Shown here in pieces: positions 1,535 through 64,000 of a stretch of 64,000 nt of DNA. Origin of the DNA: Allosphingosinicella sp. (lineage in GTDB: Bacteria; Pseudomonadota; Alphaproteobacteria; Sphingomonadales; Sphingomonadaceae). The notes under the pieces are model-generated. The model saw only the letters and a list, made by a program, of their open reading frames with translations, was not told where the DNA came from and did no database searches. Location of the stretch: contig DASTFN010000044.1 in the NCBI GenBank assembly GCA_035719905.1, positions 4,711 through 68,710 on the forward strand, given 5' to 3'. The translations under genes were made by a program, and so were the position numbers. How positions within the stretch are numbered: position 1 is the first letter of the stretch; every line of letters starts with the position of its first letter.

Positions 1535-5488
<3,954 letters not shown>

Positions 5489-5499
5489 GCGCCCCTCTA

Positions 5500-5562
5500 G
5501 AATAAGCCGATTGCGTAGCTACGTTAAGTGATTGCGTGGCTCAAAACATCGATTGCGTGGCT
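5500..5562 (+). repeat. Three direct repeats GATTGCGT(A/G)GCT at 21-bp period; putative transposase-binding sites at the island end
   Basis: Copies at 5509-5520, 5530-5541 and 5551-5562, starting 21 bp after the gyrB stop codon. Confidence 0.8.
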
Positions 5563-54503: not shown

Positions 54504-54800
54504 CTACGTTTGCGACGTGGCAGTCCCACATGCCTTGGTAAGAAAGGCGCAGAGTTCGCGGACTGCATCCGGACAGGCAGTATAGGTGACGACGCGGCCC
54601 TTCTTCGAGGAAGTGACGAGGCCGGCCCTCGAGAGAATCGCCAGGTGCGCGGACATCGTGTTCGCGGGAGTATTCGACTTGGCGGCTATCTCACCTGCGG
54701 AGAGGCCCTCCGGCTGCTGTCCGGCCAAAATAGTGAAGACGTTCAGGCGGGTCGCCTGGGCGAGAGCGCTCATCATCTGCATTGCTGTCATCTTTTCCAT
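54504..54800 (-). CDS. ArsR/SmtB-family repressor
   Basis: ALAQATRLNVF..L..GLSAGEIA..NTMSAHL..L.RAGLV...GR...Y. Confidence 0.92.
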   Translation of the reverse strand: MEKMTAMQMMSALAQATRLNVFTILAGQQPEGLSAGEIAAKSNTPANTMSAHLAILSRAGLVTSSKKGRVVTYTACPDAVRELCAFLTKACGTATSQT

Positions 54801-54900
54801 CCCTCTAGAATAATCGAACTAGGGGTGTCGTCAATTCGCCCTGGCCGTTTTCTGCCCCATTTTGACTCATATAATATTCGATGGTTCTGGAACCGTTGAA
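54795..54900. promoter_or_regulatory. Two related 24-bp palindromic boxes, putative ArsR operators
   Basis: TTCGATGGTTCTGGAACCGTTGAA (54877-54900, +) and TTCGATTATTCTAGAGGGATGGAA (54818-54795, -, overlapping the arsR ATG) share TTCGATnnTTCTrGAnnnnTnGAA. Confidence 0.55.
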
Positions 54901-54979
54901 ATATATTAACGTCGGATTATGTCAGGTTCAGCCGTGCTGCTCTCGTTGCCAAGCAGGCGGACTTAGGACCACAGGCGAC

Positions 54980-55702
54980 ATGGAGTTCGCTATGAATGCG
55001 ATGACCATTTCTCGAATGAAGGCTGCTTGCGCGGGTGCGCAGGCTGTAAAAGCTAGCCCCGGCGATCCGCTGGACGCTGACTCTCCCTTCGATGACGTCG
55101 TAATCACCACCAGCCGAGCATTGTGCCGGCTTGCGCTGATTGCGACTGAGACAGGTGCTCGCTTTCAGCGAGAGGCCGAACCACACGATCCGATGTCTTG
55201 GTTGATGTCTCCGCGCAGGATGTTCGCCGGCTCGACGGCATTGGAGGCATGTCTTGAGCGCGAGCACTTTCTGCGGGCCCTTCTGCTGCATGGCTTATCG
55301 CTTGGGCTCGATGCCGACCCCGAGGAGATCGACGGCCTCCTGGACGATCCTGTAGACGATCATGTTGTCAGCCGGTGTCGCCGAGGTACCTCGAGAGCAG
55401 TCGCACGATTGAGGCTCTATACGGCAACCGTGCTTCGCTCGACTTCCGGAACCATGCTTCAGGCGTTCCATGCCTCGGTCACGTCCTCGGTGGAAGAATT
55501 TCGGGGCAAGCTCGAAGAAAAATTTGGTCCGGCCGCGGCTGAACGTGCCGAGATCCGCGTCGGCTTTGATCCTGCAGCGCCCATCGTTCTCGCCCTGGTG
55601 CCGGCAGCCGTCGCCAAGGTGCTTCGGAAGGTCGAGCGGGAGAGTGCTGCGCCGGCTTACGGCAACTTCGCAGTGACAATCGAGCACTGTCTCGAAGCCT
55701 GA
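54980..55702 (+). CDS. Hypothetical protein (paralog of 56768-57529)
   Basis: RLAL.A.ETGARFQRE..HDPMSW..PR..F.G..A..ACL.R...LHGLSLGLDADP shared with the second copy. Confidence 0.75.
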   Translation: MEFAMNAMTISRMKAACAGAQAVKASPGDPLDADSPFDDVVITTSRALCRLALIATETGARFQREAEPHDPMSWLMSPRRMFAGSTALEACLEREHFLRALLLHGLSLGLDADPEEIDGLLDDPVDDHVVSRCRRGTSRAVARLRLYTATVLRSTSGTMLQAFHASVTSSVEEFRGKLEEKFGPAAAERAEIRVGFDPAAPIVLALVPAAVAKVLRKVERESAAPAYGNFAVTIEHCLEA

Positions 55703-55799: not shown

Positions 55800-56684
55800 A
55801 TGAGCAATGGAAAACCCAATGGGTATGTCTCGCCATCCGGTGCGGACGACAGTCGGATTTTGCGCCGTGTTGATATTCGTGAGGGGCAGACCGGCGAAGG
55901 AAATCAAGCGGACGCTCCGTTCGTCGGTATCGCTGTAGACGTTGAAACGACGGGATTGGATCGCACGTCCGATCGCATCATCGAGCTCGCGCTGAGGCGG
56001 TTCCGGTACGACCGTAATGGCGTGATCACGAACATCGACATTCCATACAGCTGGCTGGAAGATCCCGGGAGACGCATTCCCCCGGAGATATCTAAGCTGA
56101 CGGGTCTCACCGACGCCGATGTGGAGGGGCAATCCATAGATGATGGTGACGCCGTACGCTTGCTGGGCACCGGTACGCTGATCATCGCCCACCATTGCCG
56201 GTTCGATCGCCCATGGGTCGAGGCACGGCTCCCCGGTGCCACAGGACTCGCCTGGGCGTGCTCGATGGAGGGGATCGACTGGCGGGCTCAGGGCCTCGAA
56301 GGGGGTAAGCTCGGCTTTCTCCTTACGCAGGCGGGATGGTTCCACACGGGCCATCGTGCCGGTGCCGACGTGGATGCCGTCATTCAGTTGCTGCGCCACC
56401 GGTTTGAAAACGGGCGGACCGCTCTGTCAGCTTTATTGGAAAAGGCGGCCCAGCCGAGCTGGATTGTTCGCGCGGTCGGCGCCGACTTCGGCGTCAAAGA
56501 TCTGTTGCGCTGCCGCGGGTACCGCTGGGACGCCGGTCGCAAGGTCTGGTGGCGTGAGGTGGCCGACCCGGATCGTACCCCGGAGGAGTTCTGGTTGGCG
56601 GCCAATGTCTACTCCGGGCACGCAAACCCGAAGGCCCTCGGCCCCACCTTCGAGGAAGTATCTGCCTTTACGAGGTTCCTGTGA
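55800..56684 (+). CDS. DEDDh 3'-5' exonuclease (DnaQ-like)
   Basis: AVDVETTG, IIAHHCRFDR, HRAGADV. Confidence 0.9.
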   Translation: MSNGKPNGYVSPSGADDSRILRRVDIREGQTGEGNQADAPFVGIAVDVETTGLDRTSDRIIELALRRFRYDRNGVITNIDIPYSWLEDPGRRIPPEISKLTGLTDADVEGQSIDDGDAVRLLGTGTLIIAHHCRFDRPWVEARLPGATGLAWACSMEGIDWRAQGLEGGKLGFLLTQAGWFHTGHRAGADVDAVIQLLRHRFENGRTALSALLEKAAQPSWIVRAVGADFGVKDLLRCRGYRWDAGRKVWWREVADPDRTPEEFWLAANVYSGHANPKALGPTFEEVSAFTRFL

Positions 56685-56767
56685 TTGCTGCCTCCATTGG
56701 GCCGCCGACCAAGATCGAGGGCGGGGGAGCATCGCAATCAACCAGCGTAGAATTAAGGAGAGGTAAA

Positions 56768-57529
56768 ATGGAAGCGCACACCGAAACCAGAGAAGCTAGC
56801 TTGCTAATCGACGGCCCAATGGCGGCAGATTCGAACTACGGCTGGGTCTCGGAGGCGCTCGCGCGATACGACGATCCGCTGGATTTTGACGTCCCGACTG
56901 ACGTGGCGGTTACCACGACTCGTCGCGGACTGGTTCGCCTTGCTTTGGTCGCCGCCGAAACCGGAGCTCGCTTCCAGCGAGAGGGCATGTCTCATGACCC
57001 AATGAGCTGGATGCTGGCCCCTCGTGCGTTGTTCGACGGTGCGAGCGCGATCGACGCATGCCTCGAGCGGAACGGCTGCATGCGCGGCCTTATGATCCAC
57101 GGCCTGTCGCTCGGGCTGGATGCGGATCCTGCCATAATCGATGCACTGGCCGCTGATGGCGACGAGGAAGAGCTTGAGGCTCAGCCGCGTGGTCCGGGCG
57201 CGGAGATCCTTCCGTTCGCTCGCCAGCCGGAACCCCAACTCCGTCTCTTCACCGCGACCGTCGTCTCCCACGACCGGGGCGAGACGGTCCACGCTTTCCA
57301 TGCGTCGCTTGCAATCGATGAGTCAGAGGTAAAAGGGCGCCTCTACTGCCGCATCGGCGCCGCCTCGGTCCACGCCCGGATCGTGGCGGGCTTCAATCCC
57401 GCAGACCCGCTGGTCGAAGCACTTGTCGCGCCTGCTATGTGCGATACTTTGGAGTTGGTCGACGGGGACCCCGGTTCGCCGCTCGCGGCCGGTCTCGACC
57501 TCAACATCGAGCAGCGCTTCTTCGGGTGA
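56768..57529 (+). CDS. Hypothetical protein (paralog of 54980-55702)
   Basis: Same conserved blocks; GGAGAGG RBS before the ATG at 56768. Confidence 0.75.
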   Translation: MEAHTETREASLLIDGPMAADSNYGWVSEALARYDDPLDFDVPTDVAVTTTRRGLVRLALVAAETGARFQREGMSHDPMSWMLAPRALFDGASAIDACLERNGCMRGLMIHGLSLGLDADPAIIDALAADGDEEELEAQPRGPGAEILPFARQPEPQLRLFTATVVSHDRGETVHAFHASLAIDESEVKGRLYCRIGAASVHARIVAGFNPADPLVEALVAPAMCDTLELVDGDPGSPLAAGLDLNIEQRFFG

Positions 57530-57627: not shown

Positions 57628-59109
57628 TTAGCTCTCGCCTGCTCCGAGTACATCTACATGGACCACGACAGGGACGCTGTGGGCCTCAGAGACTTCCATG
57701 GCGCCTTTGGCGAGCTGCAGGAAGGCGGCATCCCGGACGGAAGCGTCCGCTACTGCAACAGTGAGATGCCAGACATGATCCTCGGCCTGCCGAACCTGCA
57801 CGTTAGCCGCTCCCCCGGGCGTGCTGCATTCGGCGACTCTCTCGAGCAGGTGGCGCACGTCGCCATGCCCTTTGATTGTTGGCCGGCCACCGCGACTACG
57901 GGCCGGAGGAGGGCTATTAGCGTCCGTAAAGATATCCTCCCCGAGAGCAGCCATCAGCGGCGCGACATCGAGGGGGATAGCGGTAGCCCATGCAGCCTTC
58001 GGTACCCTCCGGTTGGCCATTTCATCCACGGCCTCCGAGAGCATGCGTTCAATAGTTGCCAGCGGCTGCACGGCAGTGACCCGGGGATCGTATCCGAACG
58101 CGTCACCACGATCTGCGCGGCGTTCGAGCCGAAAGGGGCCAAGTCCCATGCCCAGAAGGCGTCGCGTCGGGCCGCCCTGATGCAGGAAGATGTCGCGACG
58201 CTCTATTATTTCGTAGCTTTCTGCTAGCAGGGCATCAGTTAGGTACTTCCACTGCTTGGCGAATGTGGTGGCAATCACGATCTTGGGTTTGGGCTGCGAA
58301 GACGTTTGGGACACTACGTCATCTTCACGCGCCAGGCTGATCCGTCGGTTAACATCCTGAAGCGCGAGAAGGACTCCGCGTGGTTCAGCCGATCCGGCTA
58401 TCACAGCGGCACCAAGCGGGCTGCCGGACCACAAGTCGATGGCAAGGGTAATCGTGGGGGGCAGGCCGTCTTCTTCAGCGACCAATCTCTTGATGGAGGT
58501 ATGGTCGATGACGAGGGTTTCTACAAACCGCTCCGCGACGACGTCGCGCTCTTGCGCCTGACGTCCCAGGTTCAGCGTCAGGGTGCCCGGAGTCGGATTG
58601 GCTGATCGTAAGGCGCGCTCGTGGAACACTCGCAGCGCAGTGTCGCTCGGCAGGTCACCCGGCCCGGTCCAAGTTTGCCGCACGTGCGAGATAATCTGAG
58701 CGGTGGAGGCGAGGGGATCGCGCTCCAGAAGACTTTTGATTGAGGCGGAGATGGCGCTGGCCGTTTCTTCGGCGGCCAGGCGCGTTGGTCGCTCCATGCC
58801 GAGCTTCTGGTGAGGCACTAGCGAGAAGGGCGATCGGTCATGCGCCCTCCAGTGCGCCACCAACTGGTAGAATCGTGCGATTGCGAGCCCCGCCTCTTTC
58901 GCGGCGCGCAGTGTGTCCGCCGACGTGGGGCTCTCCAGTTCGTCGTACGCACGGAGAGCCTTAAGGCGGCGCAACGCCACCTCCTGCTTGGCAATCGGAA
59001 GCAGAAGCCACTCGGTTTCAGAGAGAAATGGCTCGTCTTTCAATAATGCTTCCATGCTACGCACACGCGCGAGGATAGCGCGTGCGACGTCCTTCGACGA
59101 CGGCGTCAT
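57628..59109 (-). CDS. TnsB/TniA-like protein with degenerate DDE triad
   Basis: N-terminal HTH block, then LVIDHTSI..TITLAIDLWSGSPLG; second Asp and Glu positions appear replaced (IVIATTFA, HQGGPTRRLLG). Confidence 0.7.
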   Translation of the reverse strand: MTPSSKDVARAILARVRSMEALLKDEPFLSETEWLLLPIAKQEVALRRLKALRAYDELESPTSADTLRAAKEAGLAIARFYQLVAHWRAHDRSPFSLVPHQKLGMERPTRLAAEETASAISASIKSLLERDPLASTAQIISHVRQTWTGPGDLPSDTALRVFHERALRSANPTPGTLTLNLGRQAQERDVVAERFVETLVIDHTSIKRLVAEEDGLPPTITLAIDLWSGSPLGAAVIAGSAEPRGVLLALQDVNRRISLAREDDVVSQTSSQPKPKIVIATTFAKQWKYLTDALLAESYEIIERRDIFLHQGGPTRRLLGMGLGPFRLERRADRGDAFGYDPRVTAVQPLATIERMLSEAVDEMANRRVPKAAWATAIPLDVAPLMAALGEDIFTDANSPPPARSRGGRPTIKGHGDVRHLLERVAECSTPGGAANVQVRQAEDHVWHLTVAVADASVRDAAFLQLAKGAMEVSEAHSVPVVVHVDVLGAGES

Positions 59110-59270
59110 GGCTCTTTCTCCCTATTTTGGTCAACGTGGAGGATGCGCACCGATGTTCTTGACATCGGACTTCTGCATCCTAGATTATTTCGTAATCTTA
59201 CAGAAAAGGCGGTTGCGTTGAGCTACTCGGATGTGCTGGATCATGAGCGATCCCTGATCGGAACCTCACC

Positions 59271-59933
59271 TTGAGGCGGAACCGCGGTCCCAACGTGGCG
59301 GTGCCGGTGCGGGAAGTACGGAGGCGCTCCTCCGCCTGCACGACCGGCAGCGTTCCAGTTCCGGTCATCGGCACTTCGCTGCATGGCGAGGGCAGGCTCG
59401 ACGTCGACCTGCACGTCCTCGTGTCAGTGCTGCCCTGGGTGCGCGAGTATAAGGCGCAACCCATGCGGTTGCCGATCTGGGTGGAAGGGCGGTGGTCCAC
59501 CTATGTCCCGGACGGACGACTGCTCGGCTTGGCGCGGCCGCTCTGCGTCGAGGTCAAGCCACTGAAGAAGCTGCGGGTCTCACCCGACCTGGACGGCAGG
59601 AAAATTGCTATTGAGCGGGCTCTAGATCTGCGCGGCGAGGACTTCGTGATCTGGACCGAGCTTGAAATTCGGGCTGAGCCCCTTTTCCCCAATGCCAAGC
59701 TGGTTTGGTCTCATGCCCAAAACGCTGCCCCTACTGAGATCGTGGAGACCTGCGCGAAGCTGCGGAACGTCGCCTTCTCAATCATGGATGAGGTCGTCGC
59801 CGCTTTTGGGGGGGGGCAGCACGGCTGGCGGTTGGCGTTGGCGCTGGTCGGCATGAAGGTCCTCGCGCTCGACCTCAACCAGCCCATCGTCGGCTCGTCA
59901 CGCGTGCGGGTCGGCACTCGCGGATGGATTTGA
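59271..59933 (+). CDS. tnsA: TnsA-like endonuclease
   Basis: VREYKAQP..YVPD..VEVKP (PD-ExK), WTELEIR; directly upstream of tnsB. Confidence 0.8.
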   Translation: MRRNRGPNVAVPVREVRRRSSACTTGSVPVPVIGTSLHGEGRLDVDLHVLVSVLPWVREYKAQPMRLPIWVEGRWSTYVPDGRLLGLARPLCVEVKPLKKLRVSPDLDGRKIAIERALDLRGEDFVIWTELEIRAEPLFPNAKLVWSHAQNAAPTEIVETCAKLRNVAFSIMDEVVAAFGGGQHGWRLALALVGMKVLALDLNQPIVGSSRVRVGTRGWI

Positions 59934-59943
59934 GGAGCGACCA

Positions 59944-62241
59944 ATGGCGCAGACTACCTTCAGATTAGCTCGGGGCGACACCATTGCAATGCCCGACGGT
60001 ATAGCCGGGACTCAACTCTGGCGCGTCGAGCGACGCCTTCAGAAGGGCTATTTGACCTCGTCCAGCCACGCCCCGGATCGCGTTTGGACGCACGATGAGA
60101 TCATGGCGGCCTGGTGCGACCACCGAATGGAGCATTGGGCAGCCGATCTGTCGGGACTGGACGAGGCTCTCGCGGAGATGCTGCAGAGCGATCTTGACCG
60201 CTGGTCACCAGAGAAGATCTTCGAGGCGCGTTGCCGAGAAACTTATGCCAGACGAGTTGACGAATTGCGTGGCGCCGGCGTCCGCAAATACAAGGCGTAT
60301 CGGCGAGCAGCGGCGGAGATCACCGCGGAGTTCGGGGATGAATGGGCAAAGAGGGCGGCGGAGCTCCGGGGGGCCGCCGATGCGCTGGCTCCAAGGCGCC
60401 TGAAGACTCGGTCGATTGCATTGGCCCAAGCTCCCATTCCTCCACTCACGCTGGGCTGGAGCGCGGTGAAGAAGTGGTGGCTGAGGTGGGACAAAGCTGG
60501 ACGGGATCTGCGGGCGCTCATCTCGCAAGATCACCTTCGTGGCGACCACAGGCCTCGCTTCGACGACAGGAGGGGCGAGCAGAAGGACGACGCGGACGTG
60601 CGCTGCGTCTATGGCGCCATGGCCTGGCTCGCACGGACCGTCTACATGGGTCAGACGGACCAAGACGGCGACGGTAAAGCATCTGGCCATACTGCCACGT
60701 CCACCAAGAAATATGCTCACGAGCGGCTCAAGGAGAAGCTGAAGTCGCTCCGCCTTCCGACCGTGTCGATCACCACATTCTCGAAGTTCCTTCGCGATCG
60801 CTACGATGCATACGACGAATACCGGGCGCGCTTCGGGCCGAGGGCCGCCTATCTGAAGTTCCACATCTTCGAGAGACGCGCACTCCCAGACCGGGCCATG
60901 GAAGAGGTGGAGGTAGACCATTGTCTCCTCGACGTGTTCGTCATGGACCGCCACGGGCGGGTCGCTCGTCCTTGGCTGACAGTGCTGATCTGTCGCGCCA
61001 CGAAGATGATCGTCGGGATCCACATCGGGTTCGATCCCCCCAGTTCCGAGACGCTGGCTCGCGCGGTCCTGCACGCGATCCTTCCGAAGGTGCTCGATGG
61101 CACTGGTGCCAAGCACGATTGGCCCTGCATGGGGGGCTTCGACATGCTGATCACTGATCGGGGCCTCGAACTCATGAGCGAGGCCTTCCAGCGCGCCGGC
61201 AACCGTCTTAAGTTCGCGATCGTCAACCTTCCGGGAAGGTCTCCGTGGTTGAAGGCGACCGTCGAGCGTTTCTTCGGGACGCTTGGTGTGCGCGTCCTGT
61301 CGCGGCTAGAGGGGACGACCCGTGCGCGGGCGCCAGACTGGTATGATCCACAGGCCCGAGCGCGGTGGGGATTGGCGGAGCTCACCGCTGAAATCGTCCG
61401 GTGGATCGTAGACGATTATCACGAGGCGCATCACGACACGCTCGGCACATCACCCCGACGCCGTTGGCAGGAGCTCGCCGAGGATGCGCACTGCGGCGGT
61501 GTTCGGGTGCCGCCGCCCTTTAAGGAGGTTTTCCGGATGCTGGGTGAGGGTGGGATCACCCGCGTCATCGGCAATAGCGGCATTCCCTTCGACAACAATC
61601 ACTACTCAAGCCCCGATGTGGAAAGATACAGGCGCACTCACGACGGTAAGAAACCGGTTGAGATCATTGCCGAGTATTTCGATCGGAGCTTCATCTGGGT
61701 GAAGCTCGGTAACGATTGGAAGGAGGTGCCGGCGGTCGGCGGCGTCCGCCTGCAAGGGCTAAGTCGCTACGCTAACCGAATCGTCAATCGACTCGCCCGC
61801 AAACTCACGCCGCAGGGTGAGGAGGTCACCGAGGACACATTGGAACGCGCCCGCATTCAGTGTGAGGAAGAGGCGCGCACGATGAAGGGGCGCCGCGCTA
61901 TACGCTTCGGGTCCGAGGGCGCGCTAGCCACCGACGTCCTTGGTAACAACGGGCGGCTCGCGGTGTTGGCAAACGGATTGGAAACGCCGTTAATCGAAGA
62001 CTCGGCTCAGGCGCCAACCGATAAGGCACCGACGTTCACGATCGAGCAGAAGTCCTCCGCCGAACGGGAGGCGGATGCCCCATCCGTAGATGCGCCTGAG
62101 CATGGCGCCGCCACCGATCAAGGCAATGATCTTGAGCAGAACGAGCCGAACATCGCTGGGCTCGCGATTATGACTGCACCGAAGCAGGATCTGGACTCCA
62201 TTCTGGCCGAGCTTTCCGGCGCCCATAGGGTGCTACGATGA
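59944..62241 (+). CDS. tnsB: DDE transposase TnsB (Mu-transposase-like C terminus)
   Basis: EVEVDHCLLD, RPWLTVLIC, LITDRGLE, KATVERFFG, YH...H..LG.SP...W. Confidence 0.92.
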   Translation: MAQTTFRLARGDTIAMPDGIAGTQLWRVERRLQKGYLTSSSHAPDRVWTHDEIMAAWCDHRMEHWAADLSGLDEALAEMLQSDLDRWSPEKIFEARCRETYARRVDELRGAGVRKYKAYRRAAAEITAEFGDEWAKRAAELRGAADALAPRRLKTRSIALAQAPIPPLTLGWSAVKKWWLRWDKAGRDLRALISQDHLRGDHRPRFDDRRGEQKDDADVRCVYGAMAWLARTVYMGQTDQDGDGKASGHTATSTKKYAHERLKEKLKSLRLPTVSITTFSKFLRDRYDAYDEYRARFGPRAAYLKFHIFERRALPDRAMEEVEVDHCLLDVFVMDRHGRVARPWLTVLICRATKMIVGIHIGFDPPSSETLARAVLHAILPKVLDGTGAKHDWPCMGGFDMLITDRGLELMSEAFQRAGNRLKFAIVNLPGRSPWLKATVERFFGTLGVRVLSRLEGTTRARAPDWYDPQARARWGLAELTAEIVRWIVDDYHEAHHDTLGTSPRRRWQELAEDAHCGGVRVPPPFKEVFRMLGEGGITRVIGNSGIPFDNNHYSSPDVERYRRTHDGKKPVEIIAEYFDRSFIWVKLGNDWKEVPAVGGVRLQGLSRYANRIVNRLARKLTPQGEEVTEDTLERARIQCEEEARTMKGRRAIRFGSEGALATDVLGNNGRLAVLANGLETPLIEDSAQAPTDKAPTFTIEQKSSAEREADAPSVDAPEHGAATDQGNDLEQNEPNIAGLAIMTAPKQDLDSILAELSGAHRVLR

Positions 62242-63353
62242 CATATCAGCACAGCAATCTAGATCCAGCCATGGGTGCGGTCGCGGACCTCGAACTCGCG
62301 ATCATGTCCCACCAGATGTTGGATCAGGCGATCGAGGCGATGACTATCTTGCTCGCTCGTTCGAGGCACCGTCGCGGGAGACAGCACCTGCGTGCCCGCG
62401 GTATGCTTCTGGTCGGCGACGCGGGAGCGGGCAAGTCCACCATCATCCAGCACTTCTTGGATCTTAACCCCCCGGAGCAGACGCTGGACGGGATCGTAAT
62501 GCCTGTCGCTGTGGTGGAGGTGCCCCCAGCACCGACACTGCGAGCAACCGTAGATGCGATCTATGCGGCGCTCGGCTATCGCGCCGAGAAGGCGCTGTCT
62601 GCCGAGGACATAGTCAGGGATCTCACTGGCAAGGTAGACCTGCTCGGCGTCGGAGCGATGCTTCTCGACGAATCCCACCACATTCTTGCTTCGCGTCAGT
62701 CCGCCGACGTGACCGAGTTCCTCAAGTCGCTGCTGAACAGGCTGGGCTGCAGCATGATCTTTGCTGGACTCCATGAGCTGAAGGACCTTCGTGGCTCCCT
62801 GCAGCTCAACCGCCGCCTTTTCCCTGACGCCGTGCTCCGCCCTTACAATTTCCTCAACACGGCCGAGCGCCTCGAGTTCATGGCCTTCCTCAATGCCCTC
62901 GAGCTTCATGCGATCAAACTTCCTGAGCCCTCCGGGCTTGCCAATCAGGAGATGGCGCGCCGGCTCTACGCAGCGTCGGGAGGGCTGCTCGGCATCGTCA
63001 CCAAGTACCTGTCACATGCCCTGCTTCTGGCGCACCTGCGCGGACTAAGGTGCATCGACCTCGATCTTCTCGCCGAGATCGACGCGAGTTGGTGCGGTCT
63101 GGCCGCGGCACCCGATGATATCCGCTTCGACGATGACATCTCCTTGGACCAGGGTGTGGACGTTGCAGGTCTCTTGGCCCAGGTCGGACGCGCGCGGATC
63201 GACGTCCCTTCCAATCCTTTCAAGTGTGATGCCGGTCTGGTCTTCGACATTTACAAAACGCGCGCAGCTCAGCAGGTCGTCGAGCCGCCGAGGCGTCGCC
63301 TCGACCGCCGGATGAGAGGCACCGGACCGGATCCCCAGAAGGCCTTTCAGTGA
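62238..63353 (+). CDS. tnsC: TnsC/TniB AAA+ ATPase
   Basis: LVGDAGAGKST, LLDESHH, LKSLLN, QL.RR; ATGA-coupled to tnsB. Confidence 0.92.
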   Translation: MTYQHSNLDPAMGAVADLELAIMSHQMLDQAIEAMTILLARSRHRRGRQHLRARGMLLVGDAGAGKSTIIQHFLDLNPPEQTLDGIVMPVAVVEVPPAPTLRATVDAIYAALGYRAEKALSAEDIVRDLTGKVDLLGVGAMLLDESHHILASRQSADVTEFLKSLLNRLGCSMIFAGLHELKDLRGSLQLNRRLFPDAVLRPYNFLNTAERLEFMAFLNALELHAIKLPEPSGLANQEMARRLYAASGGLLGIVTKYLSHALLLAHLRGLRCIDLDLLAEIDASWCGLAAAPDDIRFDDDISLDQGVDVAGLLAQVGRARIDVPSNPFKCDAGLVFDIYKTRAAQQVVEPPRRRLDRRMRGTGPDPQKAFQ

Positions 63354-64000
63354 CTCTTCCACTGCAATTACGCATGCGTTTGCAGGAACCGGGTCATGGC
63401 GCCCTGCTCAGGCTGTGTGCTCGAAACGGCCGAACGGTGGTGCAATCCTTCGCAACATCGATTGGTGTGCAGCTACGAGCGGCACTGGCTGGTCGCGAAG
63501 TAGCCCTAATCGCGGAGCTGGCGGGGCTCTCGCTAAACGCGACTACCTGGTGGTCACCTGTCGTTGCGTCTGCGGACCGCATCGTTTCGATTGCGGGCGA
63601 GGAGTTGTCACTGGGCGACTGGTCCGTCGCGACTCGCCGCCACTGTCCGGAGTGCCTACGCTGCGATGCCGAAGAGGCGAAAGCGCGGAAGCTTCCAGCC
63701 GACTGGGTTGCTAGCCACCGGTCGTGGTGGGATCTCCGTTCGATCGCCGCGTGTCCCGAACATGGCGTCGCGCTGATCGACGCCTGCCCAAGTTGTTCTT
63801 TGCCTCTTGGCTGGCGGGATGCCCGGCGCCTCGTCTGCCCGGGTTGTCAAGGAGATCTCATCGTCGACTCCTCCCCACTCGACGATCCGCTGGGCCGATA
63901 CGTCGCGGCTCGGCTGGGTATCGGACGATCCGATCGGCCGGCTGTTCTGGAGGACCTGCCACTTCGGCAGGCTGTGCGGCTCTGCGGCAAGCTCGGACGG
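63350..64000 (+). CDS. tniQ: TniQ/TnsD-family target selector (3' truncated; absent from ORF track)
   Basis: Manual translation from GTG 63350: MTLPLQLRMRLQEPGHGALLRLCARNG...RHCPECL...WWDLRSIAACPEHGVALIDACPSC...CPGC, the TniQ zinc-finger pattern; open to the window end. Confidence 0.9.
   Translation, partial: MTLPLQLRMRLQEPGHGALLRLCARNGRTVVQSFATSIGVQLRAALAGREVALIAELAGLSLNATTWWSPVVASADRIVSIAGEELSLGDWSVATRRHCPECLRCDAEEAKARKLPADWVASHRSWWDLRSIAACPEHGVALIDACPSCSLPLGWRDARRLVCPGCQGDLIVDSSPLDDPLGRYVAARLGIGRSDRPAVLEDLPLRQAVRLCGKLGR

Follow-up and report, generated by a model that had tools for sequence, protein, structure and literature searches.

A predicted catalytically inactive TnsB/TniA-fold protein encoded back-to-back with tnsA in Tn7-like transposons, mostly of Sphingomonadales

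The phage Mu repressor c shares the enhancer-binding domain of the transposase MuA, and in Tn5 Inh and the truncated transposases encoded by insertion sequences, transposase DNA-binding parts are reused to restrain transposition. TniA (Tn5053/Tn402-type), TnsB (Tn7 and the CRISPR-associated transposons, CAST, of type V-K; PDB 8ea3, 7svw, 7pik, 9bw1) and MuA (4fcy) have an N-terminal helix-turn-helix (HTH) region followed by an RNase H-like core. CvkR (Alr3614), which type V-K CAST elements encode, is a repressor of the MerR type (PMC9938897), and TnsF of Tn6022 is described in PMC10293859 as an inactivated tyrosine recombinase serving as a target selector. Here we describe a gene from a 64,000-nucleotide stretch of contig DASTFN010000044.1 of Allosphingosinicella sp. 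(the window, whose numbering is used throughout). It belongs to a Tn7-like transposon, lies head-to-head with tnsA, and encodes a 493-residue TniA/TnsB-like protein, P0001, in which two of the three catalytic positions are no longer acidic and that we label DEAD (open reading frame (ORF) 57628-59109, minus strand).

DEAD shares the domain order of TniA, TnsB and MuA, and keeps the DH motif of TniA/TnsB on strand 1 and their AID..S..G motif on strand 3. Unlike them, it has T281 and R316 at the remaining catalytic positions, no β-barrel or TnsC/TniB-binding tail, and a new C-terminal domain; its gene stands alone and divergent from the operon, on the opposite strand in every locus, instead of sharing an operon with the AAA+ regulator in the tnsB-tnsC or tniA-tniB arrangement. 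Since it is without a complete triad, a C-terminal coupling region and a place in the operon, DEAD is a derivative of the active TnsB/TniA/MuA family and not a member of it. CvkR and DEAD are both transposon-borne beside Tn7-like transposition genes, with a regulatory role shown for CvkR and proposed for DEAD, but the MerR fold of CvkR is unrelated to the transposase-derived fold of DEAD. TnsF and DEAD are both recombinase-family proteins, lacking catalysis (in DEAD, as predicted), that are kept as Tn7-like accessories; TnsF, however, is of another enzyme superfamily, operonic with TniQ and works through TniQ, whereas DEAD is evolutionarily uncoupled from TniQ and TnsC. Mu c and Tn5 Inh represent a shared domain or a truncation of an active gene, whereas DEAD is an almost full-length separate gene with an apparently dead core and an old independent lineage; unlike Tn5 Inh, it has a gene distinct from that of its element's active transposase. 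No passage on a DDE (Asp-Asp-Glu)-dead TnsB/TniA-like component was found by keyword in the Tn7 surveys PMC10293859 and PMC8649781, nor by full-text search, which is not proof of absence; in the literature as covered by these searches, DEAD is a component without a description for Tn7-like elements.

The DEAD frame is intact, begins with ATG and has a GGGAGA ribosome-binding site in front; its start is 161 bp from that of the tnsA-like gene on the opposite strand. The original prediction, made from the sequence alone, had reported this frame and gap, and all the motifs that it quoted are present: VIDHT (D202), TLAID (D225), IVIATT (277-282) and HQGG/GGPTRR (310-317). Two independent profile alignments place D202 (codon 58504-58506) at the first catalytic Asp (DH motif), T281 (58267-58269) at the second Asp (DN/DR) and R316 (58162-58164) at the Glu (ER), and the flanking GG and R-L-x-G motifs correspond in both. 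The first Asp alone survives, in line with the motif comparison that had suggested loss of the other two residues. Shifting the alignment by one residue does not rescue the site, as none of the 4 positions on either side of T281 is acidic. The neighbouring TnsB, which had likewise been credited with a full triad, has one (D325/D405/E441), and it is invariant in a 20-sequence alignment. The alignments thus show DEAD with two of its three DDE residues gone, and predict a catalytically dead protein.

DEAD had no family match in Pfam (including PF09299, Mu-transpos_C), NCBIfam, PHROGs or PADLOC, no match by sequence in the PDB as a single protein or as a profile, and no BLASTP similarity to the neighbouring TnsB. 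An AlphaFold2 model from 14 homologues (mean predicted local distance difference test score, pLDDT, 69; core 80-90) has a helical N-terminal region, an RNase H-like core of order β1-β2-β3-α1-β4-α2-β5 at residues 198-303, and a small separate α/β domain at 416-487. The top 24 Foldseek matches of this model in the PDB were all transposases, with E-values of 1e-9 for type V-K CAST (ShCAST) TnsB, 1e-7 for Tn7 TnsB and 2e-6 for MuA; IstA was also matched. Profile alignment (hhalign) of the DEAD family with 27 active TniA-type transposases, drawn from genomes of the same order and phylum, gave a probability of 97.9% and an E-value of 3.8e-13 over 324 columns, pairing DEAD residues 26-378 with TniA 5-364 of 535; the alignment with the neighbouring long TnsB family was weaker (E = 0.0046, 291 columns). 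Residues 26-170 (58600-59034, minus strand), a helical region, align with TniA 5-152 and so with its two HTH DNA-binding subdomains, relatives giving weak HTH_23/28/29/32 matches, and the core with the degenerate active site was assigned from the model and residue mapping to residues 196-330 (58120-58524, minus strand).

Past residue 364, TniA has its β-barrel and the tail by which it contacts its AAA+ partner, and hhalign found no counterpart of this part in DEAD. Its place is occupied by the extra α/β domain (residues 416-487; 57649-57864, minus strand), which follows a disordered linker and is modelled as helix 416-429, strand 436-453, helix 456-477 and strand 481-487. Foldseek returned only weak small-domain matches for this domain, which may serve in dimerisation.

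Conservation marks the ORF as a genuine gene and not a chance frame. The ratio of nonsynonymous to synonymous substitution (dN/dS), computed for unsaturated pairs, is 0.14-0.24 for the DEAD gene and 0.10-0.16 for tnsB, and the HTH region is the most conserved part of DEAD, with 76% mean identity among orthologues. DEAD is an intact TnsB/TniA-fold protein with a bipartite HTH region and an RNase H-like core, under purifying selection. It has 14 close homologues (42-83% identity), and an exhaustive profile search gave 131 clusters at 50% identity, 57 of them with E below 1e-10; database names seen for family members are all 'hypothetical protein'. When about 100 representatives were aligned to the family model, the first Asp was kept in nearly all, and the second and third positions were variable and non-acidic (T/S/A/C/V and R/K/Q/H). 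D, D/N and E occurred only in the five remotest matches, which are true transposases with rve and Mu-transpos_C domains. A word-indexed search with a broad profile did not extend the family, and a locus search with a narrow alignment yielded two loci from metagenome-assembled genomes and one weak match.

The matches in 401 genomes of the same order split cleanly into active and inactive types: in ORFs of at least 535 residues, VQIDHT, DN and GGHIERLI are present and the TnsB model gives the better score, and ORFs of about 230-530 residues are recognised by the inactive model alone and have neither DN nor ER. In a 401-genome phylum-wide sample, matches outside the order were almost only of the active type. 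In a maximum-likelihood tree of 75 proteins, a single branch (Shimodaira-Hasegawa-like approximate likelihood-ratio test support, 100), the deepest split in the tree, parts 45 inactive proteins from 30 active TniA/TnsB proteins, the cognate TnsB among them. Because this one branch separates the two groups, DEAD is, on the tree, not a recent duplicate of the adjacent TnsB; the topology is compatible with one old inactivation. Its lineage scores nearer to TniA-type transposases. Thus the description of DEAD as a TnsB/TniA paralogue holds as to fold, but not in the sense of a recent paralogue of its neighbour, from which an old lineage and the lack of BLASTP similarity set it apart.

In other Sphingomonadales Tn7-like elements (L036-L050), the inactive family is usually represented by a convergent gene pair whose stop codons overlap, the proximal gene encoding about 390-430 residues and the distal one about 250-360, many without even the first Asp (e.g., L040 8982-11225, L043 8813-11178, L037 11047-13085). 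In one alignment, a few short distal members carry acidic residues close to where the second Asp and the Glu would be; we do not read them as active, as the active-type TniA profile aligns only their first-Asp region. The 493-residue single-gene form with its extra C-terminal domain may replace the convergent pair.

The position of the DEAD gene is conserved too. Upstream sequence was present for ten distinct loci with orthologues (the window, L001, L002-4, L061, L056, L057/58, L100, L101, L102 and L103), and in every one the gene and tnsA are divergent and about 150-380 bp apart. The survey of homologues envisaged in the original prediction thus came out as proposed, with divergence from tnsA in all ten loci and non-acidic residues at the second and third positions; the dN/dS check that it had also called for indicates constraint, and the homologues are intact and tns-linked and not the scattered, decaying remnants that would have told against it. 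In distant elements of the order, the proximal inactive gene is again divergent from tnsA-tnsB-tnsC-tniQ, and tnsB lies within a 20-kb stretch in 15 of 17 loci with inactive members. The sole exception to the arrangement of the ten loci is the truncated copy P0019 (L059 1214-2338), which has 374 residues and 42% identity and lacks the first ~110 residues; its neighbours are SRAP, DUF6771 and Tle1-like genes, and its 16-kb contig has no tns genes. DEAD is thus a fixed accessory gene of a Tn7-like transposon group, found mostly in Sphingomonadales, and stands back-to-back with tnsA.

The inheritance of DEAD does not follow that of the operon it faces. When the window was compared with the related loci L002 and L061, DEAD was 83% identical, whereas TnsA, TnsB, TnsC, TniQ1 and TniQ2 were just 26-35% identical (TnsB 33%). 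The identity of DEAD is matched on its other side, where four gene products are 78-96% identical in the same comparison: an ArsR-type HTH protein (HTH20; 54504-54800, minus strand; Pfam/PADLOC), the unannotated u273 (54881-55702, plus strand), a DEDDh exonuclease (55800-56684, plus strand; Pfam/PADLOC) and the unannotated u282 (56681-57529, plus strand), which alignment identifies as a paralogue of u273. A continuous block of 86.5% nucleotide identity, common to the window (54501 to 59229-59232), L002 (9881-14578) and L061 (9878-14569), extends over this cassette and the DEAD gene into the intergenic region, of which it includes the first 120 bp and with them the predicted tnsA promoter. It breaks off where the HTH gene ends on one side and shortly before tnsA begins on the other. 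In the L002-type element, the end repeats differ in sequence and orientation from those of the window element. More remote orthologues repeat the pattern: L100 combines a 61%-identical DEAD with a 25%-identical TnsB that has an HTH_TnsB domain, and L102 a 55%-identical DEAD with a 41%-identical TnsB. Because the orthologues in L002/L061, L100 and L102 accompany differing tns operons, one DEAD lineage serves at least four tns lineages. These comparisons show that DEAD has been inherited with the tnsA promoter region and the ArsR-HTH/exonuclease cassette, and not with the tns genes or the ends.

HTH20 and u282-like genes also adjoin inactive members in the distant elements L037, L039 and L055. 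The paralogues u273 and u282 (40% identical) form an unannotated family flanking the DEDDh exonuclease; they share a conserved N-terminal motif, DPLDxD...TTRR...GARFQR...HDPMAWMLAPR, and their C-terminal α/β domain is confidently modelled. The AlphaFold2 model of u282 as a whole had a pLDDT of 57, and Foldseek, PDB profile and family searches with u282 gave no match. L001 has a second copy of an exonuclease-u245-HTH20 set.

The divergent control region (59110-59270) was examined by promoter scan and multi-locus alignment. A candidate tnsA promoter (-35 TTGACA at 59159-59164, a 16-nt spacer and -10 TAGATT at 59181-59186; scan score 10 of 12) is its only strong promoter-like site. The motifs GGTCAAC (59129-59135), CTTGAC and CA(T/A/G)CCTAG (59176-59183) are invariant, and such invariant intergenic blocks recur in 8-9 loci of four tns lineages, for which synonymous sites in coding sequence are saturated (synonymous divergence, dS, above 1). 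On the DEAD strand, the blocks read TAAnCTAGGnTG, GTCAAG and CGTTGACC, the last exactly 19 nt before the ATG; seen on the tnsA strand, GTCAAG and CTAGG coincide with the predicted promoter at 59159-59186, and TTGAC and GTCAA form an inverted pair. This pair was also considered as a leader RNA hairpin (GUCAA...UUGAC); the consensus energy is just -3.2 kcal/mol and the arms are invariant, giving no evidence of covariation, and it was treated as a DNA-level motif. An identical 13-nt sequence, CCCTCTAGAATAA, occurs at the left terminus of the element (5493-5505) and at 54801-54813, the latter copy inside an imperfect palindrome in the divergent HTH20/u273 promoter region that is conserved only in the closely related L003; the CTAG-centred block over the tnsA -10 resembles it. 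The recurrence of CCCTCTAGAATAA may reflect chance or a shared operator.

The element as a whole has the features of a Tn7-like transposon, namely tns genes, a target-site duplication, asymmetric TnsB sites and insertion after a conserved gene, the TnsA match being weak. The operon, on the plus strand, comprises a tnsA-like gene with a TTG start (59271-59933; 220 residues; weak Tn7_TnsA-like_N match, E = 0.002, and NF033179; position conserved in all loci), tnsB (59944-62241; 765 residues; active-type DDE triad, with PF00665/PF09299 in relatives), a tnsC/tniB AAA+ regulator gene (62238-63353; PF05621 TniB, E = 2.6e-22) and tniQ1 (63350-64000, continuing beyond the window to 65107; PF06527, E = 2.5e-9). 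An ORF for tniQ2 follows beyond the window on the same contig (64978-66984). At the left boundary (5491-5562, plus strand) lie the duplication GCCCC (5491-5495), the terminus T5496 and, evenly spaced by 21 bp, three boxes of the TnsB type that start at 5507, 5528 and 5549. These GATTGCGTRGCT boxes (5507-5562) have four inverted, unevenly spaced copies at the right end (66965-67064, beyond the window on the same contig), and lie inside terminal inverted repeats beginning TCT. The 5-bp duplication is perfect, with its second copy at 67076-67080, so that the element spans 5496-67075 (61,580 bp); the stop codon of gyrB, identified by Pfam, is at 5486-5488, 3 bp before the duplication. The layout is unusual in that tnsA-tnsB-tnsC-tniQ-tniQ is at the end far from gyrB and reads outward, with tniQ2 overlapping the terminal TnsB boxes. 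No empty site was found in the same-genus genomes G208 and G261, which have gyrB and the right flank unlinked.

As to function, the reading that we tentatively favour over the others is that DEAD may be a non-catalytic DNA-binding regulator of tns expression. It would bind the shared divergent control region at the TTGAC/GTCAA pair and the CTAG-centred block over the tnsA -35/-10, possibly as a dimer via its C-terminal domain, and when bound would gate transcription of tnsABC-tniQ and probably its own. A transposase would on this reading have become a repressor or switch of transposition that comes as a portable cassette. Indirect support is given by the inheritance of the gene together with the tnsA promoter region and by the invariant motifs over the predicted -35 and -10, and CvkR is a precedent for a repressor encoded by a Tn7-like transposon. 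Among the roles listed in the original prediction, that of a transposition repressor appears to fit best, with the co-inherited tnsA promoter region and not the ends as its site of action. Several observations weigh against this proposal. The cassette also encodes an ArsR-type regulator, and the factor that really binds the promoter could be that protein. In DEAD, the RNase H-like core is still conserved (65% mean identity) with D202 nearly universal, features for which a pure transcription factor would have no obvious need. The invariant motifs may be plain promoter elements instead of operators; the distance between TTGAC and GTCAA is variable, by about 4 nt, as would not be usual in a dimeric operator of rigid geometry; and a perfect 7-bp repeat centred on the tnsA -35 (CCGATGT-N5-ACATCGG, 59149-59167) is not conserved in L002.

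The original prediction had cast DEAD as an end-binding protein, and it could act at the element ends as a dominant-negative inhibitor occupying TnsB sites, as an immunity factor, or as a non-catalytic filler subunit of the transpososome. DEAD keeps a transposase-type bipartite DNA-binding region and the core fold and always adjoins a tns operon, and TnsB and MuA transpososomes include non-catalytic protomers, as PDB entries show. We nevertheless consider end binding unlikely, since 83%-identical orthologues occur in elements with a 33%-identical TnsB and with different, oppositely oriented end repeats, and orthologues of 55-61% identity in two further tns lineages. DEAD moreover is on the inactive side of the deepest split of the tree, has no BLASTP similarity to the cognate TnsB and is without the C-terminal part through which transposases contact TnsC/TniB, and there are no end-type boxes near its gene. 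The same uncoupling from the TnsB, TnsC and TniQ lineages argues against the suggested accessory target selector, which like TnsF would recognise target DNA and recruit TniQ/TnsC. There is precedent for an inactivated recombinase as a Tn7 selector (PMC10293859), and DEAD has sequence-specific DNA-binding domains; a selector needs contact with TniQ/TnsC, but the TnsC and TniQ proteins found with near-identical DEAD proteins share only 26-35% identity, and one DEAD lineage spans four tns lineages. In addition, the element already has two TniQ-family selectors, and the DEAD gene is outside the tns operon on the opposite strand, so that we regard this role as distinctly improbable. In short, an end-binding competitor, a transpososome subunit and a TnsF-like selector are all disfavoured because each needs element-specific contacts, and DEAD is evolutionarily independent of TnsB, TnsC and the ends.

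Another alternative is a role within the cassette, in which DEAD would be the DNA-recognition part of a set with the ArsR-HTH protein, u273/u282 and the DEDDh exonuclease, and would direct processing or defence to ends or intermediates, whether its own or those of rival TniA-type elements. The divergence of DEAD follows that of the cassette genes and not of the tns genes, the whole cassette travels as one 4.7-kb block, HTH20 and u282-like genes recur beside inactive members in distant L037, L039 and L055, and the DEAD family is closest to TniA-type transposases. However, the exonuclease is absent from several distant loci, L103 has other cargo past the u282-like gene, u282 has no fold or family match, the DEAD gene is convergent with the cassette operon and not co-transcribed with it, and the cassette was never seen away from tnsA, one N-terminally truncated copy apart; on balance this role, too, seems improbable. 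Still more doubtful is its specific form, in which DEAD, the exonuclease and u273/u282 would detect and degrade rival TniA-type ends or intermediates, or police the element's own excision products. Finally, the loss of catalytic residues, together with the truncated P0019 unlinked to tns, might suggest that DEAD is a functionless, decaying remnant of a nested TniA-type transposon. This is hardly credible, given frames that are intact in all loci, the dN/dS of 0.14-0.24, the same degenerate site across the 131 clusters (at 50% identity), a fixed position and an inactive lineage that forms one deep branch; the conservation data exclude the pseudogene reading.

DEAD appears to be a recombinase that has lost catalysis and that a mobile element has kept as an accessory or regulator. 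It represents an unannotated protein family for which there is no Pfam or NCBIfam model, and an apparently dead transposase copy that at least four unrelated tns lineages have exchanged together with the operon promoter. CRISPR-associated transposons and other Tn7-like elements are intensively studied as genome-insertion tools, and little is known of their on/off control in hosts. If DEAD acts with its cassette against rivals, it would serve a Tn7-like element as an anti-transposon guard of transposase origin. Should it be a repressor or switch, as we tentatively propose, it would provide a portable control module for Tn7-type transposition and a clear example in bacteria of a transposon itself domesticating a DDE transposase.

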